A stretch of 64,000 bases of DNA from Candidatus Aquivivens invisus (GCA_001804415.1 MHGA01000017.1:18390-82389), one strand, 5' to 3'. Positions 1 through 23,964 are shown, counted from the first letter of the stretch. The notes: generated by a model from the sequence alone, not told the origin. A program made the numbers and translations.

Positions 1-1032
1 GTCGTACACATCCGTCTCACCGATCGGCTCGATCGAGACAATGGTGGAATACCGAACCGCTGGACACTGCTTGCCAGGGGTCTCTAAAGATTGTCGCAGT
101 TTCGCATTCTTCCGTTCAGAGATAAATCCGATAGAACGTTGGAACGCCTCCCGCTCGGATCGAATCGAGATGTCGAGTTCCCACATATCGTACCGATCCG
201 GCCGACGCTCTTTCTTTTGACGCAATCGAGCGTAAATACCGAATCGTGTCAACAGTCGTTGTAATTCCTCCGCCCAGCCTTTGGACGTCACCGCAAACGC
301 CACGTGCGCGCTTGGCACATGGACGGCGGCATAGCCGTCGGACTGGAATAGACTCTTGACGTAGGCAGCAGCTGCGTCATTGGGTGCCGTCCATAGAGGT
401 TGAGGAATCCGAAGGTCCTCCCCGCGTCGCAGCAATCCATACTGCTCAACAAATGGCCGAAGGGCCTCGCCATACAATCGAATCCGCCGACATCGAAGCG
501 TCTGATCCTGAGTCGCCACTTCACTGACATGGTGATGATGAACAGGAAAGACTTGCTGGATATGCTGCATCACCCAATCAAATTCCTGGTCATCAACCGT
601 TATGAACTCAATAGTCAATGATTGATTCGTACCATGATCGTACTGTCCAACGAACCCGTCAGCTTGCAACCAACCGGCCAGCGCAGCTTCTGCAACGACT
701 GTGGCTTCCGCTGGTGCCGTCACGGTCACCGGCGTGTGCGCATACACGCGCATCACCATGCCGGGCTTCAGCGCATCAACCCGACGCCATTCAAGACGCT
801 GAGTCCGTCGAACCTCGTGCGCACAGACGAGATGATCGCCGGTCGCTTCAATGGAGAATCCGTCGTTGAGGGTCACGCGGTAGACCGGCTTGCGTCCGTT
901 GTGCTTCACCGCGACGACCTGCGTCAGTCCCTCCGCGTCGTAGACCGGGAGTCCGATCAGATTGCGCTCGACAATCTCACCGATTGGCATAAGACCCTCG
1001 GCGGTATTAATGAGGGCGTGGTAGGGCTGGCA
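1..1032 (-). other. Intein with a double-motif LAGLIDADG homing endonuclease inserted in nrdJ (partial). The N-terminal splice junction is at Cys codon 1030-1032; the C-terminal junction lies outside the window.
   Basis: After the extein ...PQCSA the frame continues CQPYHALINTAEGLMPIGEIV (intein block A-like), then IEATGDHLVCAHE (block B TxxH). It also has LAGWLQADGFVG and KSLFQSDGYA, two LAGLIDADG motifs. The host NrdJ SAC-FIL active-site region is interrupted. Confidence 0.7.
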
Positions 1033-1524
1033 GGCCGAGCACTGAGGACGGGGCTCGATCCCGACATTGAACCAGACGGGCGAATTAAAGGCGGCGTATT
1101 GATGGACGAGCAGGTAGGTCAGTTCCGCCCGAAAGGTCTCGGCGTCCTCCGCCGTGGCGAAATAGCCGTCTGTGATGCCCCAGTCGGTGACGGTGTTGGC
1201 GACCCGGCCGATGAGCTGTTTGACGCTGCGCTCGCGCTGCGGGGTGCCGATGGCCCCTCGAAAATATTTGGAGACCACGACGTTGGTCGCCAGCTGCGAC
1301 CACGCGCTGGGCACTTCCACATCCCTTTGCTCAAACACCACCTCGCCTTTTTCATTGGCGATGGTGGCGGCTCTCAGCTCCCAGGCGATCTCATCAAAGG
1401 GGTGGATGCCTGGACGGGTCCATCGTCTGGGGATCGTCAGACCCCGCGCGCGAAGGGCAGGAGCCTCTGAACGCTCCACGGGGGCAACCGTCGCGCCAAT
1501 CCCAGACTTGATCTGCTCAGCCAT
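1..1524 (-). CDS. nrdJ: Adenosylcobalamin-dependent (class II) ribonucleotide reductase NrdJ: N-terminal extein plus the beginning of an in-frame intein. The CDS runs off the window at position 1.
   Basis: Minus-strand translation from the ATG at 1522-1524 gives MAEQIKSGIGATVAPVERSEAPALRARGLTIPRRWTRPGIHPFDEIAWE..VVVSKYFRGAIGTPQRERSVKQLIGRVANTVTDWG..NSPVWFNVGIEPRPQCSA. This is the conserved N-terminus of monomeric NrdJ. There is no stop before the window edge, which is why the ORF track does not list it. Confidence 0.8.
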   Translation of the reverse strand, partial: MAEQIKSGIGATVAPVERSEAPALRARGLTIPRRWTRPGIHPFDEIAWELRAATIANEKGEVVFEQRDVEVPSAWSQLATNVVVSKYFRGAIGTPQRERSVKQLIGRVANTVTDWGITDGYFATAEDAETFRAELTYLLVHQYAAFNSPVWFNVGIEPRPQCSACQPYHALINTAEGLMPIGEIVERNLIGLPVYDAEGLTQVVAVKHNGRKPVYRVTLNDGFSIEATGDHLVCAHEVRRTQRLEWRRVDALKPGMVMRVYAHTPVTVTAPAEATVVAEAALAGWLQADGFVGQYDHGTNQSLTIEFITVDDQEFDWVMQHIQQVFPVHHHHVSEVATQDQTLRCRRIRLYGEALRPFVEQYGLLRRGEDLRIPQPLWTAPNDAAAAYVKSLFQSDGYAAVHVPSAHVAFAVTSKGWAEELQRLLTRFGIYARLRQKKERRPDRYDMWELDISIRSEREAFQRSIGFISERKNAKLRQSLETPGKQCPAVRYSTIVSIEPIGETDVYD

Positions 1525-2176: not shown

Positions 2177-3037
2177 TTACAGCCGCATCCGCCGCAACCG
2201 ACGCACGCGCTCCTCAACCGGCGGATGCGTGGAGAACAGGCGCGCGATCGCCCCGGCCGAGAGGGGATTGACAATGAACAGGTGCGCCGTGGCGGGATTG
2301 GCGTTCGGCAGCGGGTACTCGCGCGAGGCTGTGTGCAATTTCTCCAGGGCGTCCGCCAGCCCGTAGGGGCTGCCCGCCAAATGCGCGCCCGTGTCGTCGG
2401 CGCCGTACTCGCGCGTCCGCGAAATCGCCAATTGAATCAACATCGCGGCCAGCGGGGCGAGGATGGCAATCAGCACCAGCACGACGAGCTGCAACGCCCC
2501 GGCTCCTCGGTTCTCGCTGTTGCGGCTCCGGCCGCCGCCGAACCACAACGACCACTGCGCCATGCGCGCGAGGTACATGATGGCCCCGGCGATGGCCGCG
2601 GCCAACGTCATGACCAGCGTGTCGCGGTTCTTCACGTGCGAGAGCTCATGCGCCAGGACCCCCTTCAGCTCCTCCTCGCCCATGAGCTCCAGCAACCCGG
2701 AGGTCACGGCCACCGCCGCGTGGCTGGGGCTGCGCCCCGTGGCAAAGGCGTTGGGGGTCCGCGTGGAAATCCAGTACAGCTTCGGCATGCGCATCTGGCT
2801 TCGCGAGGCGATTTCCCGCACGACCCGGTAGACCTGCGGAGCCTCAGACTCGCCGAGCGGCTTGGCCCGGTACATGGCCAGGACGATCTTATCGCTGAAC
2901 CAGTAGGTGATGAAGTTGAGGACCAGGGCGAACGCCAATGCGATCGTCGCCCCCTGCGTTCCACCTATCAGGTGGCCGAGAAATACCAGCAGGACGGTCA
3001 GCAACGCCAACAAGAATCCGGTCTTCAGCACGTTCAT
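2177..3037 (-). CDS. htpX: Zinc metalloprotease HtpX (peptidase family M48)
   Basis: HELSHV zinc motif, an N-terminal TM pair MNVLKTGFLLALLTVLLVFLGHL and GAIMYLARMA-type helices. The start at MNVLK is preferred over the ORF-track start at 3097. Confidence 0.8.
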   Translation of the reverse strand: MNVLKTGFLLALLTVLLVFLGHLIGGTQGATIALAFALVLNFITYWFSDKIVLAMYRAKPLGESEAPQVYRVVREIASRSQMRMPKLYWISTRTPNAFATGRSPSHAAVAVTSGLLELMGEEELKGVLAHELSHVKNRDTLVMTLAAAIAGAIMYLARMAQWSLWFGGGRSRNSENRGAGALQLVVLVLIAILAPLAAMLIQLAISRTREYGADDTGAHLAGSPYGLADALEKLHTASREYPLPNANPATAHLFIVNPLSAGAIARLFSTHPPVEERVRRLRRMRL

Positions 3038-3119
3038 GGTGACTTCCTCCTCTATTCTTGTGCTTGGTATTATCCCCCCTCGAAGGAGGGCTGTCAAAGC
3101 AATCCGGCGAGGTGGGCGA

Positions 3120-3878
3120 TCAGCAATGCAGGGCCTGTAGGTCGCGCGCGAGGGTGAGGCGGCCGGCGTACGAGCGGCGGATGCGGCGGCGGGCGGTGGC
3201 GAGATGGACGATCGGATAGAAGTGCGTCAGGACCAGGCGGCGGGCCTGCGCCTCGGCGGCGATCCGCCCGCAGGCCGTCGGCGTCAGGTGGCCGGCGACT
3301 TTGCGCTCATCGGGCATGGAGCATTCGAGGATCAACACATCCGCCCGGCGACCCAACTGAACGATGTCGTCGCAGACGTCGGTGTCGCCTGAATAGGCGA
3401 TCGCGCGCCCGGCGGATTCGAGGCGATAGCCCAGCGCGCGTCCCTCCGCATGGTTCATCCGCTTCGTCCGCACCGTGCCGCCAGGAAGTGCGAGCGTCGT
3501 TTCGCCGAGTTCCTTGAGGGTCAGGCGGTACGTCTGTGGCTCGATCCAGCGATGGAAGGCGGTGTTGAGCTGCCGGTACAGTTGCTTCAGCCCGCGAGGA
3601 CCATAGACCGTAAATGGTCGCGTGCGGGCAGGGTACGGGATGCGCATCGCAAAGAGGATCGAGACGAGATCGAGACAGTGGTCCGGATGGAAATGCGTGA
3701 GGAAGAGGCGGTCGAGGTCGAGGTAGCTGACCCCGATGCGCATGAGCTGTTTGAGCGTGCCGGGGCCCGCGTCGAGCACCAGGTGTTCCCTGCCCGCCTT
3801 CACGTAGACGCCAGCGTACCCGCGCGGCGTGCGCGGATCCGGAATCCCCGTGCCGGTGCCGAGGAGCACGATCTTCAT
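3120..3878 (-). CDS. MBL-fold metallo-hydrolase (RNase Z/ElaC-like)
   Basis: LLGTGTGIP N-terminus, THFHPDH (HxHxDH) metal-binding motif and a downstream D/H ligand in ECSMPDE. Confidence 0.6.
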   Translation of the reverse strand: MKIVLLGTGTGIPDPRTPRGYAGVYVKAGREHLVLDAGPGTLKQLMRIGVSYLDLDRLFLTHFHPDHCLDLVSILFAMRIPYPARTRPFTVYGPRGLKQLYRQLNTAFHRWIEPQTYRLTLKELGETTLALPGGTVRTKRMNHAEGRALGYRLESAGRAIAYSGDTDVCDDIVQLGRRADVLILECSMPDERKVAGHLTPTACGRIAAEAQARRLVLTHFYPIVHLATARRRIRRSYAGRLTLARDLQALHC

Positions 3879-3880
3879 GG

Positions 3881-3962
3881 GACACAAGACTCAAGACACA
3901 AGACCCAAGACTATGACTTGAGTCTTGAGTCTCGGGTCTTGAGTCCAACAACTGGGTCTTCC
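3881..3962. repeat. Imperfect inverted repeat built from CAAGACN heptamers (intergenic hairpin between the exonuclease-WYL gene and the MBL gene)
   Basis: gacacaagactcaagacacaagacccaagact-atg-acttgagtcttgagtctcgggtcttgagtc. Confidence 0.6.
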
Positions 3963-3967
3963 GATGG

Positions 3968-4789
3968 TCATTCGGCGACGGCCGTCGGCACGAAGTCCGC
4001 GGGAATCGTGTACCGGTTCCACGTGGGCTTGATGTCGAGGATGCGGTCAATCCGGAACTGGCGGACGTCCTGGCGGAGGTGGCAGTACCCCTCGAAATAC
4101 GGTTCGTTCACGGCGTACACATCGACCCGACGGACGCGTTGCGCCGATTCGCCGGCCTGCACGCTGGCGGAAAGGTACTCGATCTCCACTTGGAGCCGTT
4201 TCTGGAAGGCCTCCGCCAACACCTTGGCGATCATTGCGAGGTCGCGTTTTCGCTCAGGCCAGAAGACCGGAATGTTCAATTTCTCCGCTCCGTAGCGGCT
4301 GGTGGCGAAGAGCGTGCCGTGCTGTTTGCCATAATCAAACAATTCTTTGGTGAGGCGCACGTCGTCGAGACAGTATTGCTTGATGAGGTCGAACTTCCCT
4401 TCTTTAAACCAGGCCAGCGCCTGGAGCCCGCTGCCGCTCTTGCCCTTTCCCAGGGTGGCCTGACACAAACTCTCCAGGCTCACGCGATGACCCAGTTGCT
4501 TGACGGCATCGTCAATGATGTCCAAGACCGGAATCGTCGAAATAGGAAAGGGCAGATAGGGCGAGAGGACCGGCAGGTCGAAGCGTTTGATGTTGAAGCC
4601 GATCACCAGCTCCGCCTCCTGCAGGAGGGGGACGAGCTGACGCAGCTCGGCTTCCAGATACGTCTCGTAGTGATCCGCACCGTAGCGGTAGATCCCGACG
4701 ACCGAGACGCCGAGGAGCTCATGCCGACGCCCCTCGACTTCGCTGAACTCCCGCTGCGTTTCCAGATCGAGCACAATCCGTTCACCCAT
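3968..4789 (-). CDS. DnaQ-like DEDDy 3'-5' exonuclease fused to a C-terminal WYL domain
   Basis: Exo I is IVLDLETQ, Exo II is VIGFNIKRFDLPVL and Exo III is YCLDD. The C-terminal segment EPYFEGYCHLRQDVRQFRIDRILDI matches the WYL-domain core (WYLxGYCxLRxxxRxFRLDRI). Confidence 0.6.
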   Translation of the reverse strand: MGERIVLDLETQREFSEVEGRRHELLGVSVVGIYRYGADHYETYLEAELRQLVPLLQEAELVIGFNIKRFDLPVLSPYLPFPISTIPVLDIIDDAVKQLGHRVSLESLCQATLGKGKSGSGLQALAWFKEGKFDLIKQYCLDDVRLTKELFDYGKQHGTLFATSRYGAEKLNIPVFWPERKRDLAMIAKVLAEAFQKRLQVEIEYLSASVQAGESAQRVRRVDVYAVNEPYFEGYCHLRQDVRQFRIDRILDIKPTWNRYTIPADFVPTAVAE

Positions 4790-4811
4790 GGACGGAGGTC
4801 ATCCTGCGCGT

Positions 4812-4907
4812 GGTGACAAGCGACAAGGGACAAGCGACAAGTTCGATGTCACCGCTCACTCATCCGTGTTGACTTGTCGCCTGTCGCTTGTAACTTGTCC
4901 CTGTCAT
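4812..4907. repeat. Heptamer-repeat hairpin (GTGACAAGCGACAAGGGACAAGCGACAAG arm, ~30 nt spacer, complementary TTGTCGC/TTGTAAC/TTGTCCC arm)
   Basis: Direct reading. Lies between the stop of the cpATP-grasp gene and the start of the exonuclease-WYL gene. Confidence 0.65.
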
Positions 4908-6298
4908 GTGAGCATGAGGGCGCTGAGGAGGCCGCCGCCGCGGGAGACATTGACGACGGGGTCTTCCGAGAAGCGGCCGATCAGGCCGACCCCGGTCGAA
5001 TTGACAAAGAAGCCGGAGACCACGCGCCGCTGGACATCACAGACGCTCCCGCCATTGAGCCGGGGGAACCGTTCCGTCGCGATGCGGGCGCGCTCCTGCA
5101 CGACGTACCGGCTGCGCCCCCCGAGGGCTTTGTTGAGCGTGCGCTCCCACACGGATTGCAAGACGCAATCGCCCACGACCACCCCCTGCCCGCCGTAGAG
5201 GGTGTTGGGCTTGAGGACCAGACGATTCTTGTGCCGGCGGATATAGGACGCCAGCGCCACGCGCGCGCCTGACGGGTCGGATGCCTGGGTCTGGCGCACC
5301 AGCCTGGTCCACGGCAGATGGCGGCGGAAGAACCACCGCTGCTGCGTGGTAAAGTACCGGGCGTGGGTGGGATCGGTGAAGATCTCCCAGCAGGACTTCT
5401 GGTCGAATTCCCACAGCAGGCCGGAGATCAACCGGCCCTCCCGAATCGCCTGCCGCAGGGCCGCAAGCCGCCTCCCGTGGCGCTCCATGTCGAGAAATTC
5501 GTTGAGCTCGCAGTCACGATAGAGGAGATCCACCGGTTGGCCGTTCGCCACCAGGCCGCGCCGGCCCACGCGCAGCGCCCGGGGGTCGGCGACGACGGCC
5601 TTCAGGCCCCGCCCGGCGAAATACCTCGCCAGGCTTTCGAACTCGTCGGTGCCGGTCGTGAAATCGGTGTTCTCGATCAACGCGACACCTCGCAGCCGGC
5701 GTCCCAACCGGCGGGAGACGCTGACCAGTTCGTCGAGCAACAGGTCGCGCGGGTCAGGCATCGGCACCACCCGACGGCCGGGAAACGCCCGCTCGAAGGC
5801 ATCGCCCAGCACATCCAATACGATTGAGGCGGCCGCGGGGGCATAATGGATGCCGCCGACCCCGACGGTATTCGGCTCGAGCATCTGAAAGGTCTCGCGC
5901 CACCTCGCGTGGGAAAACGTCGCGTTGGAATCAAGCCGCCCGAGCAGCGCCAGAGGCCGGCTGTGGCGCTGGCCGGCCAGGAGAATCCATGAGGCCTGCG
6001 CCGCCGTCAAGGGCAGGATGCGCCGAATGGCGGGATCGCGGGCGTACAGGGCCGGCAGGCGGGCCAGCGCCTCGACCATCAGGCGCGCGGCGCCATGAAA
6101 GAACTTGACCTGGGCCGGGCTGAGGATCCAGGGCACGAGGGCGAGCTCAATCGTCTGCGGCTTGTTGTGGCCCGCGAGAAACCGAAGCCCCCGCACCGCA
6201 CTCAGTGCCTGAACGGCGTGCAAACGCCTCAGCAGCTCCTGCCGGCCAAGCCGCTTGACCGCTCGATGCAACGGCTCACACGAGAGATAATCAAGCAT
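4904..6298 (-). CDS. Circularly permuted ATP-grasp type 2 family protein (DUF404/DUF407-like amidoligase)
   Basis: LVLKPNTLYGGQGVVVG plus RYVVQERARIA and downstream glycine-rich segments resemble cpATP-grasp-2 proteins. The start is chosen at MLDYL (6296-6298). The ORF-track extension to 6571 crosses a palindromic element and is probably untranslated. Confidence 0.5.
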   Translation of the reverse strand: MLDYLSCEPLHRAVKRLGRQELLRRLHAVQALSAVRGLRFLAGHNKPQTIELALVPWILSPAQVKFFHGAARLMVEALARLPALYARDPAIRRILPLTAAQASWILLAGQRHSRPLALLGRLDSNATFSHARWRETFQMLEPNTVGVGGIHYAPAAASIVLDVLGDAFERAFPGRRVVPMPDPRDLLLDELVSVSRRLGRRLRGVALIENTDFTTGTDEFESLARYFAGRGLKAVVADPRALRVGRRGLVANGQPVDLLYRDCELNEFLDMERHGRRLAALRQAIREGRLISGLLWEFDQKSCWEIFTDPTHARYFTTQQRWFFRRHLPWTRLVRQTQASDPSGARVALASYIRRHKNRLVLKPNTLYGGQGVVVGDCVLQSVWERTLNKALGGRSRYVVQERARIATERFPRLNGGSVCDVQRRVVSGFFVNSTGVGLIGRFSEDPVVNVSRGGGLLSALMLT

Positions 6299-6415
6299 GT
6301 GAGTGGTGCTCAGGCTTGACAGATGATGACGCTGGAGAGATGGTTTCGCCTGGCATACCGCCAGCGGCGAGGGCTGACGTGCGGCCGGCGTCGCGGAGGC
6401 CGAGCGGGCATGGTG

Positions 6416-6453
6416 CCCCACATGCTTCGTTTTGCGAAGCAAAACGTGTGGGG
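6416..6453. repeat. Two-tier palindromic REP-like element, copy 1
   Basis: CCCCACA-tgcttc-GTTTTGC-gaa-GCAAAAC-g-TGTGGGG has an outer 7-bp stem and an inner 7-bp stem. A longer second copy lies at 23864-23920. Confidence 0.5.
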
Positions 6454-6634
6454 CGAGCGAGGCCGGAGCGCCGAGTGAGCGGAGCCACGCTGGGGCGAAG
6501 CGAACGTCCGGCCGAACGTGCAGCCCGAGCACAGCTGGCGGTCCGGACGAACACGCGGTAAGCCCTGTCAACCTTGACGATGACCGTCATGTGGGGATGC
6601 TATTGTAGCGGATGGCGGTTTCATTTAGTATACC

Positions 6635-8104
6635 ATGACCATGAGCAACGAACGCGTCCCCACCGCCCTCGTCCGGCAGCTCGTCAAGGACCTCAAGCGC
6701 CGCGGCGTCGATTACGCGGACGTGCGCTTCGAGCGCATCCTGCACGAGAGCCTCATCGTAGAGAACGGCCAGGTCAAGCCGATCAGCCTCTTCGAAACCG
6801 CGGGGGTGGGCATCCGCGTGCTCATCCGGGGCTCCTGGGGCTTCGCCTCCACCCCGCATCTGACACCCTCGTTCCTGCGCCGGGCCGCCACGCAGGCGAT
6901 CGACATCGCCAAGAGCTCTTCCTCTATTAATAGGAAGGTGGTCCGGCTCGCTCCGGTTGAGCCGGTCAAAGCGACGTGGCGCTCCTCGTGGCAGATCGAC
7001 CCCTTTGAGGTCCCCTTAAGCAAAAAGCTCGACTACCTCCTGTGGGCGGAGGCGACGGTCCGCGGCCCGAAACCGATCAAGCGGGTCACCGCCCACATGG
7101 ATTTCACCAAATCGACCAAGTGCTTCGCCTCCACCGAAGGGGCGGCGATCGAGCAGCGCGCCATCGAAAGCGGGGCCGGCCTGGAGGTGGTCGCCCAACA
7201 AGGCGAGGAGGTGCAGGTGCGCAGCTACCCCAACTCCCATCACGGGGCGCTGGCGCAAGCCGGCTTTGAGTACGTGAAACAGTTGGACCTCGTCGGAGGC
7301 GCCAAAACCATCCAACGCGAGGTGCTCCAGCTGCTGCGCACTACCCCTCCAAGGGCCGGCCAGACCACGCTGATCCTCGACCCCACGCAGATGGTCATGC
7401 AGCTGCATGAATCGTGCGGGCACCCGACCGAATTGGACCGTGCGCTGGGCCAGGAGCTCAGCTACGCCGGCGGCAGTTTCCTGACGCCGGAGCGCCTGGG
7501 GACGCTGCGCTACGGTTCCCCGCTCATCACGATCGTGGCGGATGCCACGGCGCCGGGCGGGGCCGGCACGTTCGGCTATGATGACGAAGGGGTGCCCGCC
7601 CAACGGACCGAGCTGGTGCGCGAAGGCGTGTTCGTCGGGTATCTCAGCTCGCGCGAATCGGCCGCCCGCTTGGGGTTGCGCCACAGCTCCGGCGCGATGC
7701 GCGCGGACGGGTGGGACGTGCCGCCGCTTGTGCGCATGACGAACGTGAACCTCGAGCCGGGCGAGGCGACCCTCGAGGACTTGCTGCACGATGTGAAACG
7801 CGGCTACCTGCTCTCGACGAATAAGAGCTGGTCGATCGACGATCAGCGGCTCAACTTCCAGTTCACCACGGAAATCGGATGGGAGATCGTCAACGGCAAG
7901 CTCGGGGCGGTGGTGAACAATCCGCTCTACACCGGCATCACCCCTCAGTTCTGGCAGCGCTGCACCGGCTTGTCGGATCGCAACACCTGGCGGCTGTGGG
8001 GGGTGCCGAATTGCGCCAAGGGCGAGCCGGTGCAATTGATGCACGTGGGGCATGGCGCGCCCTATGCCCGCTTTGATGGCGTGACGGTCGCTCCCGCCCG
8101 CTAA
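6635..8104 (+). CDS. tldD: Metalloprotease TldD
   Basis: 489 aa with HESCGHPTELDR and a GxC..GxP C-terminal region typical of the TldD/PmbA (peptidase U62) family. Confidence 0.8.
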   Translation: MTMSNERVPTALVRQLVKDLKRRGVDYADVRFERILHESLIVENGQVKPISLFETAGVGIRVLIRGSWGFASTPHLTPSFLRRAATQAIDIAKSSSSINRKVVRLAPVEPVKATWRSSWQIDPFEVPLSKKLDYLLWAEATVRGPKPIKRVTAHMDFTKSTKCFASTEGAAIEQRAIESGAGLEVVAQQGEEVQVRSYPNSHHGALAQAGFEYVKQLDLVGGAKTIQREVLQLLRTTPPRAGQTTLILDPTQMVMQLHESCGHPTELDRALGQELSYAGGSFLTPERLGTLRYGSPLITIVADATAPGGAGTFGYDDEGVPAQRTELVREGVFVGYLSSRESAARLGLRHSSGAMRADGWDVPPLVRMTNVNLEPGEATLEDLLHDVKRGYLLSTNKSWSIDDQRLNFQFTTEIGWEIVNGKLGAVVNNPLYTGITPQFWQRCTGLSDRNTWRLWGVPNCAKGEPVQLMHVGHGAPYARFDGVTVAPAR

Positions 8105-8110
8105 CGACCA

Positions 8111-8197
8111 TGGGACAAGCGACAAGAGACAAGCGACACGTCATAAGTGACCCATGTATGGCCTTGATACTTGTCGCTTGTCGCTTGTAACTTGTCA
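8111..8197. repeat. Heptamer-repeat hairpin (GGGACAAGCGACAAGAGACAAGCGACA arm / TTGTCGCTTGTCGCTTGTAACTTGTCAC arm) between tldD and pmbA
   Basis: Direct reading. The right arm overlaps the annotated 5' end of the pmbA ORF (MSLVACNLSL). Confidence 0.65.
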
Positions 8198-8203
8198 CTC
8201 GAA

Positions 8204-9550
8204 ATGATTGGTCACGCACGGTTGCTTGAGGAACTGGGAAAGCTGGTTGCGCGCTCGCCGGCCGATGCGACTAGCGTCTGCGCGGATGCCGAGCGGCTGC
8301 GCGTCTCGCGCTTCGCCCACGAGACGATCCATCAGGACCTCGTGCAGGAGAGCTTGAGCGTCACCATCAAGGTGATCGTCAACCGGCGGGTCGGGATCGC
8401 GGTCACCGACACCCTGGAGTACGCCAGCCTGCACCGGGGACTCCGCGCCGCACTCGAGATCGCCCGCCATGCCCCGCCGACCACCCTCCTAGCTCCTCTG
8501 CCAGGCCCCTACCAGCACATCACCCTGCAAGATTACGATCCGGCAACCGCCGAGATGCCCGCGCAGCATTTCGTCAACGTCTTGAAGCGGTTGCTGCAGA
8601 TCTGCCAAGGCGTCGGCGCCACACTCGCCGGCTCCTTCACCGTCTCGGAGGCGGAGCTGGCCGTCGCCAATTCCAACGGGGTGGCCTGTTACGCCGCGTC
8701 CACCGCCGCGGCCGCGAAGCTCGTGACCATGTATCGCAAGCTCTCGGGCTACGCCAGCGGGGTCGAACCGCACATCAACCACCTCGATGTCGAGGCGTTG
8801 TTGGAGCGCGCGCTGAAACTGTGCCTGCATCGACACGATCCCCTCACGCTGCCGACCGGCACCTATGAGGTCATCCTCGAGCCGGAGGCCGTCGCGGAGC
8901 TGGTGACGTGGCTCGGCTACATCGCCTTCGGGGCGAAAAGCTTCCAGGAGCGCACGAGCTGCCTGTCCGGCCGCATGGGCGAGGCGCTGCTCGCCCGGTC
9001 GATCACCATCAGCGACGACGGCAACGATCCGGCAGGGCTGCGTCAGCCGTTCGACTACGAGGGGGTGGCCAAGCAACGCGTCGCCCTCATTGACCGGGGC
9101 GTGGCCACCGGCATCGTCTATGATACGACCTACGGACATCTCTACGGACAGCCTTCCACGGGCCACGCCCAACCGCCTGATCAGCCCGACGGCCCGCTGC
9201 CGTTGCATCTCTTCCTTGAGCCGGGGACCACGCGACGAGAGGAGCTGATCCGCTCCTGCCGACGAGGGTTGCTGATTCCCCGCTTCCATTACGTCAGCGG
9301 CCTGCTGAACACCCGCGAAGCCCTGATGACCGGCCTGACCCGCGAGGGGACGTGGCTCATCGAAGACGGCAAGCTGCGGCACCCGGTGACCACGATGCGA
9401 TTTACCCAAAGCTTCCTGGAGGCCTTTGGGCACGTCCTGGGCGTGTCGAAGGAACGGCGGCTGATCGCCGACCCGGCTCAGGACGCCGGATGCGCCGTGA
9501 TGCCGACGGTGCGCCTGGCCAAGTTCCGCTTCACCGGCCGCTCCGCATGA
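8204..9550 (+). CDS. pmbA: TldD/PmbA-family metalloprotease (PmbA/TldE)
   Basis: Second U62-family paralog immediately after tldD. The start is placed at MIGHARLLEE (8204) rather than the repeat-encoded MSLVACNLSL. Confidence 0.7.
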   Translation: MIGHARLLEELGKLVARSPADATSVCADAERLRVSRFAHETIHQDLVQESLSVTIKVIVNRRVGIAVTDTLEYASLHRGLRAALEIARHAPPTTLLAPLPGPYQHITLQDYDPATAEMPAQHFVNVLKRLLQICQGVGATLAGSFTVSEAELAVANSNGVACYAASTAAAAKLVTMYRKLSGYASGVEPHINHLDVEALLERALKLCLHRHDPLTLPTGTYEVILEPEAVAELVTWLGYIAFGAKSFQERTSCLSGRMGEALLARSITISDDGNDPAGLRQPFDYEGVAKQRVALIDRGVATGIVYDTTYGHLYGQPSTGHAQPPDQPDGPLPLHLFLEPGTTRREELIRSCRRGLLIPRFHYVSGLLNTREALMTGLTREGTWLIEDGKLRHPVTTMRFTQSFLEAFGHVLGVSKERRLIADPAQDAGCAVMPTVRLAKFRFTGRSA

Positions 9551-10752
9551 CGAGCACACAGCAGACAGCACACAGCAGACAGCACAGCGCATTGCTGTGT
9601 GCTGTGTGCTTGGTGCTGTGTGCTGTCTCAGGGTGCGCGGTCCTCGGGACGATCAAGCAGCCGCTGGCGCAGGCGGTGGCGGCTGGAGGGGAACTCCTTG
9701 ACGATGGGTATGCCGACGTGGCGGGCGCCCTCCACATCCACACGACGTACTCCCATGACGCGCATGGGACGTTTGAGGACGTGGTGCGGGCGGCCAACGC
9801 GCAGCAGCTCGACTACGTCATCCTCACGGAGCACAACACCCTCCAGCCGCTTCGCGAGGGCAAGCAGGGCTGGCATGGGGCGGTTCTCGTGCTGATCGGG
9901 ACTGAGCTCTCGACTCGAGGCGGGCATTATCTGGCGTTGAACGTCACTGAGGAGATCGACCGTCATCAGCTCACCACCCAACAGATCATCGATGAGGTCG
10001 CTCGCCAGGGAGGGTTGGGATTCATCGCCCATCCGTATTTCAAGAAGGGGCGCTGGAAGGACTGGACGGTGAGGGGCTTCACCGGCATCGAGGCGTATAA
10101 CGTCGCGCACGACACGTTGGATGAGAACAAGCTCCGCCTGGCGCTGTGGACGCTCACCGCCCCGCCGGAGCCGTTTTACCTCTCGATCATCGACCGGCCG
10201 TACGATCCGCTGCGCGCTTGGGATGAGCTCGTCGCGCGGCACGGCAAGGTGGTGGGGATCGGTGCGACCGACGCGCATGAATTCCACCTGTGGGGCCTGA
10301 AGTTCGCCCCCTATGACATCATGTTCCAGATGGTCCGCACGCACCTCCTGGTGCCCTCGACGCCCCTCACCCCTGACCTGGTCTATGAGGCCCTGCGCCA
10401 GGGACACGCCTATTGGGAACTCGCCCTCGTGGCTGATGCGCAGCGCGGTGTCCGCTTTTTCGCCCACGACGGCCAGCGAGTCCTCGGGGTGATGGGAGAT
10501 GAGATCCGCCTCGAGCCGAACCTGCACCTGACCGCGATCCTCCCACAACCAGCACTCCTGACGCTGTTCAAAGACGGGCAGGCGATCGCGACGGCTTCCG
10601 AGAAAAGCTGGGACGTGGCGGTGAGCGATCCGGGCGCCTATCGCCTCGAGGCGTCGCTCAACGGCAAACCCTGGCTCTTCACCAACCCGATCTACGTCCG
10701 CCCCGCACCCAATGACGAGCCAACAGCACCAAGCACACAGCACACAGAATAA
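9547..10752 (+). CDS. PHP-domain metal-dependent phosphoesterase, predicted lipoprotein
   Basis: HIHTTYSHD PHP motif. The N-terminus MTSTQQTAHSRQHSALLCAVCLVLCAVSGC has a hydrophobic core and an AVSGC lipobox. The ATGA overlap with the pmbA stop is at 9547-9550. Confidence 0.6.
   Translation: MTSTQQTAHSRQHSALLCAVCLVLCAVSGCAVLGTIKQPLAQAVAAGGELLDDGYADVAGALHIHTTYSHDAHGTFEDVVRAANAQQLDYVILTEHNTLQPLREGKQGWHGAVLVLIGTELSTRGGHYLALNVTEEIDRHQLTTQQIIDEVARQGGLGFIAHPYFKKGRWKDWTVRGFTGIEAYNVAHDTLDENKLRLALWTLTAPPEPFYLSIIDRPYDPLRAWDELVARHGKVVGIGATDAHEFHLWGLKFAPYDIMFQMVRTHLLVPSTPLTPDLVYEALRQGHAYWELALVADAQRGVRFFAHDGQRVLGVMGDEIRLEPNLHLTAILPQPALLTLFKDGQAIATASEKSWDVAVSDPGAYRLEASLNGKPWLFTNPIYVRPAPNDEPTAPSTQHTE
9553..9637. 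repeat. Inverted repeat (CACAGCAGA)n / (TGCTGTGTG)n overlapping the 5' coding end of the PHP lipoprotein gene
   Basis: agcacacagcagacagcacacagcagacagcacagcgcattgctgtgtgctgtgtgcttggtgctgtgtgctgtc. Confidence 0.6.
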
Positions 10753-11752
10753 CGGTTGGCGGCCTACCGCTCGATGGCTCCCTCTGTCTGCTGTGTGCTG
10801 TCTGCTGGGTGCTCCAATGGGGTGCGCTCACGTCCCCTTCCGCGCCGCTCGACCGGCCCAGCCGCTCTCCGCTGAGATCGCGGCCTACTACGACTACCCG
10901 GCGCGCCCCCAAGAAGTCACGCGCCAACTCACCAAGGACACGCCGCGGGTCACCGAATGGCTCATGCAGTTTCCGCTCTCCGCCTCAGGATTCGAGCCGA
11001 CCGAGCCGGTTGTGGAGTTCGAGTGGTTCGAGTCGAAGCAACCCGGCCAGCGGCCTGCGATTCTGTTCAACCCGATCCTCGGCGGCGACTACCCGCTTGA
11101 GCACGGCATCTGCCGATACTTCGCCGCGCGCGGATGGCATGTCGCGCTCGTCCACCGCAAGACGCTCAAGGTCTCTCCTGAACATCCGATCGAGCGTTTG
11201 GAGCTGCTGCTCCGGCAGGCCGTGGTGCGCATGCGACAGGTCGTCGACTGGATGGAGGGCGAGGGGCGGGTGGATCCGGAGCGTCTGGGAGGTTTCGGGA
11301 TCAGCATGGGCGGCATGGCCGGCGTGATCGCCGCGGCCCTTGACCCAAGGTTGAAGGCGCATGTGGTGGTCTTGGCCGGCGGTCCCATTGCGACGATCCT
11401 TGCCACCTCCCGCGATCCGCTGCTGGCCAAGCCTCGCCGACGGTACCTCGAGCACAACCAGATGGACCTGGCGACCTTTGAGGGGCGCGTGCGGGACACG
11501 GTGAAGACGGACCCCGTCGCCCTGGCGCCGTACGTCGACCCGTCACGGATGTTCATGGTGATTGCCCTGGCCGACCACACGATCGGCCGAACCAATGCGA
11601 TCCGGCTGTGGGAAGCCGTGGGACGACCCGAGGCGACCTTCATCCCGCTGGGGCACTACACGTCCTACTTGTCCCTCCCCTACCTCAAGCGCGCCAGCCT
11701 CCGATTCTTCCGAAAGACGCTTGGCAGTCCTTCCACCGACGAGCTACAATAG
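10712..11752 (+). CDS. Alpha/beta-hydrolase fold protein (dienelactone-hydrolase-like), putative exported
   Basis: GISMGG nucleophile elbow. The N-terminus MTSQQHQAHSTQ..LSAVCCLLGAPMGC is encoded by a second CA/TG-rich hairpin module. The true start is uncertain. Confidence 0.5.
   Translation: MTSQQHQAHSTQNNGWRPTARWLPLSAVCCLLGAPMGCAHVPFRAARPAQPLSAEIAAYYDYPARPQEVTRQLTKDTPRVTEWLMQFPLSASGFEPTEPVVEFEWFESKQPGQRPAILFNPILGGDYPLEHGICRYFAARGWHVALVHRKTLKVSPEHPIERLELLLRQAVVRMRQVVDWMEGEGRVDPERLGGFGISMGGMAGVIAAALDPRLKAHVVVLAGGPIATILATSRDPLLAKPRRRYLEHNQMDLATFEGRVRDTVKTDPVALAPYVDPSRMFMVIALADHTIGRTNAIRLWEAVGRPEATFIPLGHYTSYLSLPYLKRASLRFFRKTLGSPSTDELQ
10718..10812. repeat. Second CA-rich/TG-rich inverted-repeat module (paralog of 9553-9637)
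   Basis: ccaacagcaccaagcacacagcacacag...ctctgtctgctgtgtgctgtctgctgggtgc. Confidence 0.55.
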
Positions 11753-13132: not shown

Positions 13133-13225
13133 CCTCATCAGTTCGAAGCGAGAAGTTCAAAGTTCGAAGTGACTGGAAACCTCGAACATCCACTTCGAAC
13201 TTCCGGCTTCGAACTTCGAACTAGT
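13133..13225. terminator. Hairpin array of GTTCGAAG/CTTCGAAC repeats between convergent genes (candidate bidirectional terminator)
   Basis: agttcgaagcgagaagttcaaagttcgaagtg ... cacttcgaacttccggcttcgaacttcgaact are near-complementary arms. Confidence 0.4.
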
Positions 13226-14438
13226 CCTCGAAGGTGTCGAGAGCGAACAGCTCCCGAAGATCGAGGCGGTGATAGGTGGTGTAGGCGGCGCGCGTTGGGC
13301 CCTGCGCGTTGGCCACCCAGAGCTCCGGCCAGGCGAAGATGACGCTCTGCACGTTCGAGCTGGGTGCTGCCGCTTTCGCGAGTTCCTTCGCCGCCTCGAC
13401 ATTGATCCGGCCGTAGCGCGATAGAATGCCCGCGGCTTGCCCCAGGTACCTCACCTCGTAGGCTGACCCTGCCGGCGACTCAAGGCCCGGTGCGCGCGGG
13501 TTGCCCCCTGAGGCGAGTTGCCGGTCCCGAATACCAGCATCCACCGCCGTATCCGCCCGGAAGACCGCGTCGGGCAGGGGGCGCGCGTACGCCACACCAT
13601 GCTCTGTGGCATCATCCGCCTCAAAGACCGCGACGTGCGAGCGGGTCGTCTCGACGACGACCGCCCGGTTGGCCTTCGCGTCTGCCACCACGTAGTTCAC
13701 CCCCACCGTCCGAGGCGCCTCGCGAATCAGGCGAACGGCTTCATCGAGGTCGTCCGCTTCTTCGAGGACGCGCCGCATGAGAAACGCCATCGGGATGCCG
13801 GCGTAGGTGGCGTCGACCGTCTCAGCGCCAATCTGCCCGATCGAAATCTGCCGGTCATTCATCCCGGTGAGCGCGCCGATAAATCCGGCCCAGCCGACGT
13901 TGACAAACGCGTGCTTGCCTGCAGGACGCACGACACACACGGTGGCGTAGCGTTGGATGCCGACCTCGATGGTCCAATCGAGGTTGCGCGTGTGGATCAG
14001 CCTGCCGCCTGAGGTCGCGCGCCCCCACACCGCCAACCCGGAGCACGCATAGGTGCGGTCGGGAACCGCGTGGAAGCGCCAGAGATCGCGCAGGCTCACC
14101 CCTGAGGCCGACGCCAGCGCGCGTAATTCTTCGAGATAGTCAGCCGGGACAAAGGGCTTGGCCTGAGCCCATGAACGGTCCAGCCACCAGTTCGCCGCCA
14201 CAGACCGGATGAGGGGCACTTTGAGGTACGCGCGGAAATAGCCCAGCAGCGTGGCGGTGGCGCGGCGCACGTCATCGGTAAGCAGCTCACCATGCTGGCG
14301 TCCAAGTTCCGTTGGCGCGCCCTCCAGGTAGACAATGGGCAGCCCGTCGTGATGTTCGACGCGCGCCGCTTCGGCGGTGACAGGTGACAGGTGACAGGTG
14401 ACAAGTGTGATGATCAGCAACGCGCTTGCACGCTTCAT
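13221..14438 (-). CDS. Peptidase C45 / acyl-CoA:6-APA acyltransferase-like Ntn-hydrolase, secreted
   Basis: TYACSGLAVWG (candidate Cys nucleophile) and RNLDW motifs. The N-terminal signal [25 protein letters not shown] has its hydrophobic core encoded by the (GTGACAG)n repeat. Confidence 0.5.
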   Translation of the reverse strand: MKRASALLIITLVTCHLSPVTAEAARVEHHDGLPIVYLEGAPTELGRQHGELLTDDVRRATATLLGYFRAYLKVPLIRSVAANWWLDRSWAQAKPFVPADYLEELRALASASGVSLRDLWRFHAVPDRTYACSGLAVWGRATSGGRLIHTRNLDWTIEVGIQRYATVCVVRPAGKHAFVNVGWAGFIGALTGMNDRQISIGQIGAETVDATYAGIPMAFLMRRVLEEADDLDEAVRLIREAPRTVGVNYVVADAKANRAVVVETTRSHVAVFEADDATEHGVAYARPLPDAVFRADTAVDAGIRDRQLASGGNPRAPGLESPAGSAYEVRYLGQAAGILSRYGRINVEAAKELAKAAAPSSNVQSVIFAWPELWVANAQGPTRAAYTTYHRLDLRELFALDTFED

Positions 14439-14484
14439 ACGTGGTCTCTTGAGCTTGTCACTTGTCACTTGTCGCTTGTCACGA
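14378..14484. repeat. Heptamer-repeat hairpin: (GTGACAG)x3-GTGACAA arm, ~43 nt spacer, CTTGTCAC-TTGTCAC-TTGTCGC-TTGTCAC arm
   Basis: Direct reading. The left arm lies inside the 5' coding end of the C45 gene. The right arm overlaps the stop of the ceramidase-like gene (..QIVTSDK*). Confidence 0.65.
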
Positions 14485-23688: not shown

Positions 23689-23925
23689 TGGAGCCCCACG
23701 GGCAAGCCCGTGGCCCCCTCCACGACGCCCCGTGTGGGGCGAACATCCCGCCCACCGGTCCGCTGAAGTACAGCCGACGGGGCCCCCGGCCAAGGCCGGG
23801 GCCCGATGGCGGGGTCGAAACGCCGCCAGGCCGCGGGTGACGCGGAGCCAAGGCTCCCGCCGTCCCCACTGCTTCGTTTTGCTTCGTTTTTGCGAAGCAA
23901 AACGAAGCAAAACGGTGGGGAAGGC
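23689..23925. repeat. Cluster of GC-rich palindromes (REP/BIME-like), including copy 2 of the CCCCAC..GCAAAACG..GTGGGG element at 23864-23920
   Basis: gtggagccccacgggcaagcccgtggccccctccac; gccccgtgtggggc; gggcccccggccaaggccggggccc; ccccactgcttcgttttgcttcgtttttgcgaagcaaaacgaagcaaaacggtgggg. Confidence 0.5.
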
Positions 23926-23964
23926 GCAGCGGCAGGCCCTGCGGCCCCAGGGCGTTTCGACATT

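Follow-up and report, generated by a model that had tools for sequence, protein, structure and literature searches.

We analyzed a stretch of 64,000 nucleotides from Candidatus Aquivivens invisus (MHGA01000017.1:18390-82389; the window hereafter means this whole stretch), in which an earlier note had described three head-to-tail genes as a possible functional cassette: a circularly permuted ATP-grasp ligase, a 3'-5' exonuclease fused to a WYL domain, and a hydrolase of the metallo-β-lactamase (MBL) fold. The three co-directional open reading frames (ORFs) are present as described, on the minus strand at 4904-6298, 3968-4789 and 3120-3878. Their starts are backed by full-length homologues, and the gene calls on an identical groundwater contig give products of 464, 273 and 252 amino acids. 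The ligase start at 6298 is fixed by homologues of 463-465 amino acids, 55-89% identical, that align from residue 1; a longer first ORF (to 6571) is not supported, since the homologues begin at the 6298 start. The features of the three genes are as follows.

4904-6298, minus strand: predicted divergent circularly permuted ATP-grasp carboxylate-amine ligase, 464 amino acids, found in one lineage only
3968-4789, minus strand: DEDDy 3'-5' exonuclease-WYL fusion protein, 273 amino acids
4256-4789, minus strand: exonuclease domain, residues 1-178, with Exo I D8-x-E10, Exo II N66-x3-F70-D71, Exo III Y139-x3-D143, and conserved D90 and K117
4028-4225, minus strand: WYL domain, residues 189-254, with the basic patch R239/R243/R246/R249 and Y231
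3971-4027, minus strand: C-terminal tail, residues 255-273, RYTIPADFVPTAVAE, which occupies the place of the QxxLF of most family members
3120-3878, minus strand: predicted short RNase Z-family MBL phosphodiesterase, class II phosphodiesterase of the YhfI/BA1088/Apyc1 type, HFHPDH motif, 252 amino acids

The exonuclease-WYL protein and its family

The second gene had been described as encoding a DnaQ-like 3'-5' exonuclease with Exo I, II and III motifs followed by a C-terminal WYL domain, and both halves of this description were borne out. In the profile search that the earlier note had suggested as a check, the Pfam WYL model matched the protein above its gathering threshold (E=8e-10, 39 bits against 21.8). 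DNA_pol_A_exo1 fell just short of its cut-off (23.5 bits against 23.6), RNase_H_2 remained below threshold (19.7 against 22), DNA_pol_B_exo2 was also weak, and close homologues carry a precomputed PF13482 match. In an alignment of 30 diverse fusion proteins that are 34-72% identical to the query, D8, E10, F70, D71, D90, Y139 and D143 were invariant and N66 was nearly so (at least 90%). The catalytic columns D8, E10, F70, D71, Y139 and D143 were also kept in 20 of 20 helicase-fused or stand-alone relatives, one of which has a serine in place of N66.

Structure comparison gave the same picture. With the AlphaFold2 model of the protein (pLDDT 92.4), Foldseek matched the exonuclease part to the proofreading domains of the T7, PolB and RB69 DNA polymerases and to TREX1, and the WYL part, which has a predicted Sm-like fold, to the WYL domains of PafBC, CapW and BrxR. 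In a viral structure library, the exonuclease matched stand-alone exonucleases of phages and a protein labelled 'YprB RNase H-like'. Sequence profiles linked the exonuclease domain weakly to the PolB/Pol delta and T7 exonucleases and more weakly still to NrnC (E 0.3-1), and linked the WYL part to PafBC in the PDB at E=1.9e-4 and also to CapW and BrxR. The WYL residues Y231, R239, R243, R246 and R249 are spaced by +8/+4/+3/+3, exactly as are Y196, R204, R208, R211 and R214 of PafB, which are needed for single-stranded DNA (ssDNA) binding (PMC11804915). Groove positions were widely kept among the 30 fusion proteins (R243 in 23/30, R249 in 23/30, F245 in 26/30 and Y205 in 29/30). As judged from sequence, the active site is intact and of the DEDDy type, and it is joined to a WYL domain that keeps the basic ligand groove; neither a lack of the WYL domain nor a loss of the DEDD residues, either of which the earlier note would have taken as refutation, was found. 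A fusion of this kind was catalogued in 2014 as 'WYL + 3'->5' exoRNase' (Makarova et al., PMC4012209), and a literature search found no characterised exonuclease-WYL protein.

The exonuclease belongs to a large family. An exhaustive search of 1.84 billion representatives returned 2,044 exonuclease clusters at E<=1e-3. At 50% identity the family comprises over 2,000 clusters, and it is common in minimal Patescibacteria genomes. Four architectures were found: a stand-alone form of ~190 amino acids, the exonuclease-WYL form of ~260-290 amino acids, a form of ~300 amino acids with an N-terminal extension, and large proteins of 800-1,176 amino acids with a C-terminal exonuclease. The large proteins are MrfA/YprA-type helicases, in which, as seen in P0317, P0318 and P0331, DEAD, Helicase_C, WHD_HRQ1 and MrfA Zn-binding domains precede the exonuclease, and the exonuclease domain of the window protein is 40-45% identical to those fused C-terminally to such helicases.

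We also scanned one genome per GTDB species with a 7-sequence exonuclease query alignment. At least 559 genomes had an exonuclease relative, and 80 loci were kept, whose neighbours were assessed by clustering and then annotating the flanking ORFs. The window's own lineage is represented by L001-L006 and L008 (67-93% identity), from groundwater metagenome-assembled genomes (MAGs) mostly labelled Candidatus Omnitrophota; lineage homologues of the exonuclease-WYL protein are themselves 273 amino acids long and 70-90% identical, and form more than 100 clusters. Outside the lineage, DNA-repair genes recur beside the exonuclease. In 16 of the 38 fusion loci outside the lineage, a gene for a UvrD/PcrA helicase precedes the exonuclease gene on the same strand, often with only 20-80 bp between them, and in Omnitrophota a 970-amino-acid UvrD-PD(D/E)XK helicase-nuclease is found upstream of both a fusion (L072) and an exonuclease-only gene (L056). 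The order LigA-exonuclease-PolX occurs in L039 and L080, LigA-exonuclease in L064, and the gene for the ExoVII large subunit lies near the exonuclease in L011, L040, L059 and L067. A PF04308 RNase H-like gene is found directly downstream in nine Parcubacteria fusion loci.

A neighbour-joining tree of the exonuclease domains, which carries no support values, mixes fusion and exonuclease-only forms: the L007 fusion stands beside the exonuclease-only L026, and L051 and L066 fall inside a fusion clade. Because the two forms are interleaved, the WYL domain appears to be an optional module, with repeated gains or losses in the history of the family.

Two further arrangements were seen among these loci. 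In L039, L064 and L080, from UBP18-type MAGs, a stand-alone exonuclease is encoded between an NAD-dependent DNA ligase and a PolX-PHP polymerase, and a gene for an MBL/β-CASP nuclease lies two genes upstream of the exonuclease, the whole forming a compact putative DNA-repair cluster. In the Parcubacteria loci L009, L010, L013, L017, L019, L020, L024, L028, L038, L051 and L066, a PF04308 (YkuK/DUF458) gene for a second predicted nuclease comes immediately after the exonuclease gene, whether or not the latter includes WYL, and often overlaps it.

The C terminus is the part in which the window's lineage departs from the rest of the family. We counted endings of the form Q-x-x-[LM]-[FLIV] that finish inside the last three residues. 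They were present in 52 of the 70 exonuclease-family ORFs outside the lineage (L009-L080; 31 of 35 fusions and 21 of 35 exonuclease-only proteins) and in 1 of the 689 remaining ORFs in these loci (Fisher p ~1e-63). Endings of the QxxLF type were seen with or without WYL, for example HQAALF in Saccharibacteria, QQSLF, QKTLF in Parcubacteria, and QGSLL. The consensus of the bacterial clamp-binding motif is QL[S/D]LF or QxxLF (PMC12309361), and the endings of most relatives outside the lineage match it, so that they may be read as β-clamp-binding-like motifs. Since 52 of the 70 relatives end in such a peptide, the family architecture can be written exonuclease-[WYL]-QxxLF. In the window's lineage the tail is conserved as [IV]PxD[FY][VI]PTA[IV]xE (residues 259-273, 3971-4015), with the terminal Glu present in 109 of 120 clusters (P0001-P0120).

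The ligase, the MBL protein and gene order in the lineage

The ligase had been assigned to the cpATP-grasp-2 (DUF404/407-like) amidoligases. The fold and the ATP-binding motifs implied by this assignment stand, but Pfam gathering was not reached: CP_ATPgrasp_2 (PF14403) matched with E=0.036 and 13.4 bits against 32, and no Pfam or NCBIfam model matched at E<=0.01. A few homologues carry precomputed PF14403 matches. A profile of 24 homologues aligned with 3n6x from the PDB, the structural-genomics representative of circularly permuted ATP-grasp type 2, at E=8e-6 in two colinear stretches. The alignment pairs the KPN..GG.G loop and the C-terminal N..GGG (N.S.GGG) motif, and K363, G369, G370, G372, N450 and G454-456 are invariant in the family alignment. 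With the AlphaFold2 model (pLDDT 87.7), Foldseek returned eukaryotic-type glutathione synthetases (E 2e-16, template-modelling (TM) score 0.65-0.71) and 3n6x (1e-13), and also Cp1B (the E-64 pathway ligase), YjfC, YgiC and GspS, all of them circularly permuted ATP-grasp proteins. The modelled ligase is thus predicted to have a circularly permuted ATP-grasp fold, recognised by profile and fold only and below the PF14403 threshold. It shares with PF14403/3n6x and the eukaryotic-type glutathione synthetases a whole-chain fold (TM 0.60-0.71), the lysine/glycine loop and the N..GGG motif, whereas it differs from them in its 11-20% identity, its sub-gathering score and its restriction to one lineage. 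Single-sequence and profile searches gave a family of ~260 proteins, all at least 54% identical and all from the same MAG group, and a profile search for distant relatives returned only this lineage.

The earlier note was also correct that the usual alpha-E and transglutaminase partners are absent, as no such Pfam family occurs among the genes within 10 kb; unlike cpATP-grasp type 2 systems, the ligase has no alpha-E, transglutaminase or peptidase partner inside that distance. This lineage-restricted ligase is encoded directly upstream of the gene whose product has the Glu-ending tail, and a relationship between ligase and tail is conceivable. Precedents that involve a C-terminal glutamate are RimK, which modifies S6, and LysX, which acts with LysW.

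The MBL protein matched Lactamase_B_2 at E=1e-24. Its description as an RNase Z-like hydrolase is sound as a family label but not as an identification of RNase Z: the NCBIfam RNase Z model TIGR02651 gave 130.6 bits against 292.95, and the flexible arm is missing. Aligned with RNase Z of B. subtilis (1y44), the MBL protein corresponds in its N-terminal half and its C-terminal motifs, but its residues 134-155 cover residues 130-201 of RNase Z, which leaves out the ~50-residue flexible arm (the tRNA exosite). The missing arm and scores far under the cut-off rule out a true RNase Z. The protein resembles instead the YhfI/BA1088/Apyc1 enzymes, with which it shares the HxHxDH motif, a length of ~250 amino acids and full-length alignment (residues 1-245) to the ~250-amino-acid enzymes 1zkp (6e-15) and 6kns (1e-14); Apyc1 (7u2s) matched at E=6e-4, and the precomputed Pfam matches of the protein itself include PF23023, Anti-Pycsar_Apyc1. 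Hobbs et al. (PMC9117128) group YhfI, Apyc1, PDE1 and RNase Z as class II MBL phosphodiesterases that share an HxHxDH motif. The MBL protein differs from the YhfI/Apyc1 enzymes and RNase Z in lying below every NCBIfam equivalog cut-off (for NF041851, 'cyclic nucleotide-degrading phosphodiesterase', 116.5 bits against 400), as well as in having no RNase Z arm.

Within the lineage the gene order is PHP-PmbA-TldD and then, divergently, ligase-exonuclease-MBL-HtpX-BatD. Further lineage contigs carry the same block on to class II ribonucleotide reductase (RNR), dCTP deaminase and OGG, giving a syntenic region of ~20 kb. This three-gene order holds for the window and for L001, L004, L005, L008 and L081-L086, and the exonuclease and MBL genes are adjacent in every lineage locus with downstream sequence. 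HtpX, BatD, RNR, dCTP deaminase and OGG are equally syntenic, however, so the three genes are no more linked to one another than to their housekeeping neighbours. Co-transcription in at least some relatives is likely, because the genes overlap or abut in L008, L081 and L083 and because, in the window, a strong promoter-like site comes only once the MBL gene has ended.

The arrangement also varies within the lineage. ParE and PIN toxin genes, along with 0.5-1.8 kb of other sequence, lie between the genes in L001, L002, L004 and L005: DoxX and a ParE toxin gene separate ligase and exonuclease in L004 (4208-5937), and a PIN toxin gene with a small upstream ORF separates the exonuclease and MBL genes in L002 (1376-2016). 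In L003, a DNA methylase gene, a phosphatase-like gene and an unrelated 383-amino-acid ORF stand in place of the ligase beside the exonuclease; the 383-amino-acid ORF was considered as a hidden ligase and rejected (hhalign probability 0.2%). Pribosyltran, AhpC and FIST genes occupy the position of TldD/PmbA in L081 and L082.

Beyond the lineage the association dissolves. Among 38 loci with a full-length fusion in Patescibacteria, Aerophobetes and other Omnitrophota, not one has an MBL, ligase or TldD homologue within 6 kb, and neither do the exonuclease-only loci outside the lineage. The neighbourhood comparison that had been suggested as a check therefore speaks against a functional cassette, as the three genes co-occur only in the window's lineage (0/38 fusion loci elsewhere) and lie in a conserved housekeeping block rather than a variable region. 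The functional link suggested for the TldD/PmbA pair fails as well, as other genes take its place in L081/L082 and no locus outside the lineage has it. We conclude that the ligase and MBL genes are lineage-specific neighbours of the exonuclease gene, probably co-transcribed with it in some relatives, and not parts of a conserved system that includes it. TldD/PmbA are unrelated.

Proposed role and competing explanations

We propose that the exonuclease-WYL protein is a housekeeping-type 3'-5' exonuclease of DNA repair or replication with an ssDNA-binding WYL domain, and not a signal-gated defence nuclease; we put the probability of this reading at about 0.55. During repair or replication, the enzyme would trim DNA that is single-stranded or has been unwound by a helicase from its 3' end, and the WYL domain would be an accessory ssDNA-binding or ssDNA-sensing module that keeps the enzyme on its substrate or turns it on at ssDNA. 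Most family members may be recruited by the sliding clamp, in which case the window's lineage may have swapped the clamp peptide for its Glu-ending tail. Features of the exonuclease family appear to favor such a role, namely the fold of DNA-polymerase proofreading domains and TREX1, the DNA-repair fusions and neighbours, the clamp-motif-like ending of most relatives, and the block with RNR, dCTP deaminase and OGG.

The role suggested for the WYL domain is modelled on the sensors PafBC and CapW and on the accessory DNA-binding module of Thermotoga elfii Pif1, all of which have WYL domains that bind ssDNA (PafBC, PMC11804915; CapW, PMC11662680; T. elfii Pif1, 10.1101/163188). The domain shares with these the Sm-like fold and a basic R-x3-R-x2-R-x2-R groove with an aromatic residue. 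The exonuclease-WYL protein has neither an HTH nor a WCX dimerisation domain and is therefore not a transcription factor. In T. elfii Pif1 a DNA enzyme uses its WYL domain as an accessory ssDNA-binding module, the very role proposed here.

By analogy, the protein is closest in action to MrfB or other accessory repair exonucleases, yet it is not MrfB. MrfB/YprB, which acts together with an MrfA/YprA helicase in the MrfAB mitomycin-C repair of B. subtilis, is a DEDDh exonuclease with a C-terminal TPR region (PMC11194089). The two have in common the stand-alone DnaQ/RNase H-fold 3'-5' exonuclease type, kinship of the exonuclease domain with MrfA-helicase fusions, and PF13482, which contains homologues of the window protein. 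By contrast, all members of the present family have Y139 (DEDDy), and WYL takes the place of TPR. Membership of MrfB was ruled out on these residues and because the MrfB structure in the PDB gave no sequence match at E<=10; no MrfA/YprA helicase gene was found in the window or the lineage loci. A comparison can also be drawn with E. coli Pol III epsilon, which is DEDDh and binds the PHP domain of Pol III alpha (PMC3664792). Both are small DnaQ-superfamily exonucleases followed by a short peptide that is clamp-binding-like, at least by its sequence, in the 52 of 70 family members counted above, but the present family is DEDDy and the window's tail is not QxxLF.

Several observations weigh against a role in DNA repair or replication. 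In the window the exonuclease has no helicase, ligase-A or polymerase neighbour, and the role of its protein is extrapolated from relatives that are 36-56% identical. Its tail ends in ...DFVPTAVAE and has no QxxLF-type clamp-binding motif. The UvrD-linked loci fall mostly into one clade of the unsupported neighbour-joining tree and perhaps represent few independent events. DEDDy domains also occur in ribonucleases such as RNase D and NrnC, and both the label 'exoRNase' in the 2014 catalogue and the weak NrnC profile matches point toward RNA. Finally, the stop/start overlaps or gaps of at most 36 bp between the genes in L008, L081 and L083, and the absence of a promoter-like site between the three genes of the window, would suit a joint function of their products.

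That last point belongs to the idea of a lineage-specific functional operon in which ligase, exonuclease-WYL protein and MBL phosphodiesterase act together, which we regard as unlikely, though worth stating in a concrete form. The MBL protein could clear 3'-phosphate or cyclic-phosphate blocks, or degrade a cyclic nucleotide sensed by the WYL domain, and the ligase could produce or alter a cofactor or a partner, for example by acting on the Glu-ending tail; in this form, too, the idea is a doubtful one. It would account for the gene order kept across the lineage, the constant exonuclease-MBL adjacency and the position of the strong promoter-like site past the MBL gene, and it is consistent with the kinship of the MBL protein to cyclic-nucleotide phosphodiesterases (PMC9117128) and with the binding of nucleotides such as c-di-GMP by some WYL domains (PMC11880434). 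However, the neighbouring HtpX, BatD, RNR, dCTP deaminase and OGG genes are just as syntenic, the ligase is not beside the exonuclease in L003, toxin genes and other sequence have entered the unit in L001, L002, L004 and L005, and the pairing is absent from the 38 fusion loci of other phyla, so that one lineage counts as one observation. In an RNA-processing view, the exonuclease would be a 3'-5' exoribonuclease (RNase D/T or nanoRNase-like) whose WYL domain binds RNA, as in the accessory WYL1 of type VI-D. To the shared DEDDy chemistry, the weak NrnC matches and the catalogue label (PMC4012209) this view can add the RNase Z family of the neighbouring MBL protein and the PF04308 RNase H-like gene downstream in nine Parcubacteria fusion loci, but the MBL protein lacks the tRNA-binding arm, DNA-polymerase proofreading domains head both the fold and the profile matches, the exonuclease is fused to or encoded beside DNA helicases, DNA ligase, PolX and ExoVII, and a terminal QxxLF is typical of clamp-bound DNA enzymes. 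We consider it improbable.

Least probable of all, and hardly to be expected, is a role in anti-phage defence or abortive infection, with the nuclease effector under the control of a WYL sensor; a defence module had been raised as a possibility in the earlier note. WYL domains are frequent in the defence regulators CapW, BrxR and WYL1, PADLOC WYL models match residues 183-266, and the MBL protein resembles the anti-Pycsar enzyme Apyc1. Against this, PADLOC reported no system: its matches were at the level of the WYL domain, with none for the exonuclease domain, the MBL protein, the ligase, or the TldD/PmbA and PHP proteins. The locus is a conserved syntenic housekeeping block, not a variable island, with a GC content uniform with its surroundings; the protein is 70-90% conserved through the lineage, its gene is common in minimal Patescibacteria genomes, and no full-length fusion was found in phage or plasmid collections. 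A bolder extension of the DNA repair/replication reading is speculative and, in our estimate, has little chance of being right as a whole: the family, whether stand-alone, WYL-bearing or MrfA-fused, would be a clamp-tethered DEDDy DNA exonuclease of small-genome bacteria (here Patescibacteria, Omnitrophota and Aerophobetes), a trans-acting proofreader or excision nuclease licensed by ssDNA through WYL, and the ligase of the window's lineage would modify or use the tail Glu in the manner of RimK or LysX.

The cassette as first proposed is thus no new system. What remains is a widespread exonuclease family with a modular WYL domain, recurrent links to UvrD, MrfA, LigA and PolX, and a QxxLF ending. 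Should the clamp link be true, the family would extend the poorly understood replication and repair toolkits of Patescibacteria and Omnitrophota by a DNA-repair or proofreading component, and the WYL domain, if its proposed role is correct, would be the second instance after Pif1 of such a domain serving an enzyme and not a regulator.

Spacers, promoter-like sites and flanking genes

The remaining features near the three genes are these.

4813-4902, no strand assigned: intergenic hairpin of GACAAGC-type 7-nt units and their complement, predicted RNA folding energy (ΔG) -50.9 kcal/mol, z -4.66
3881-3945, no strand assigned: intergenic hairpin of AGACNCA-type tandem units, touching the MBL start codon, ΔG -43.5 kcal/mol, z -5.31
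3069-3097, minus strand: σ70-like promoter match TTGACA-17-GATAAT, 11/12, between the MBL and HtpX genes (2 sites against 0.8 expected)
2177-3037, minus strand: HtpX M48 protease, syntenic neighbour outside the unit
6635-8104, plus strand: TldD, divergent neighbour, link not supported
8204-9550, plus strand: PmbA/TldE, 448 amino acids, neighbour, link not supported

The three genes had been said to be parted only by repeat hairpins, and each spacer (114 bp and 89 bp) does consist of one long imperfect hairpin, assembled in both cases from tandem 7-nt units and their complement. Neither spacer hairpin has a U-tract, and a terminator scan found no intrinsic terminator at either; Rfam and tRNA scans of the region gave no match. 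GC content is even across the region. Strong σ70-like matches on the minus strand were only two, one after the MBL gene and one before the RNR gene, and the former (3069-3097) may mark the 3' boundary of any cassette transcript.

The hairpins are not conserved. At the junction that matches 4813-4902, L008 and L083 have no hairpin and their genes abut or overlap, and the one at 3881-3945 is missing in L001, L003, L006, L081 and L083, where the exonuclease and MBL genes overlap or lie at most 10 bp apart. Since genes overlap at the matching junctions in relatives, the hairpins are probably insertions or expansions in the genome of Candidatus Aquivivens invisus. Nine intergenic hairpins of this kind were found, all within 24 kb of the window start (3881-3945, 4813-4902, 6415-6455, 8109-8199, 9553-9628, 10717-10814, 13140-13222, 14384-14482 and 23854-23935). 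Each is built of tandem 6-10-nt units and their reverse complement, with units that differ by site (GACAAGC, AGACNCA, CAGCACA, GTTCGAA, GCTTCGTTTT). Their ΔG ranges from -38 to -66 kcal/mol (z -4 to -6.5), 0/9 have a U-tract, and Rfam matched none of the nine.

Gene calls on the identical contig differ from the longest ORFs at two flanking genes. The longest PmbA ORF begins at a TTG at 8171, within the hairpin at 8109-8199, and the contig's call starts at an ATG at 8204; for the PHP-domain ORF from 9352, the call on that contig is shorter (401 amino acids). At the other edge, the class II (B12) RNR gene, of which the window holds the N-terminal 508 amino acids (1-1524, minus strand), runs off the window start; an intein that includes a LAGLIDADG homing endonuclease interrupts it, and it has a σ70-like promoter match at 1619-1591.

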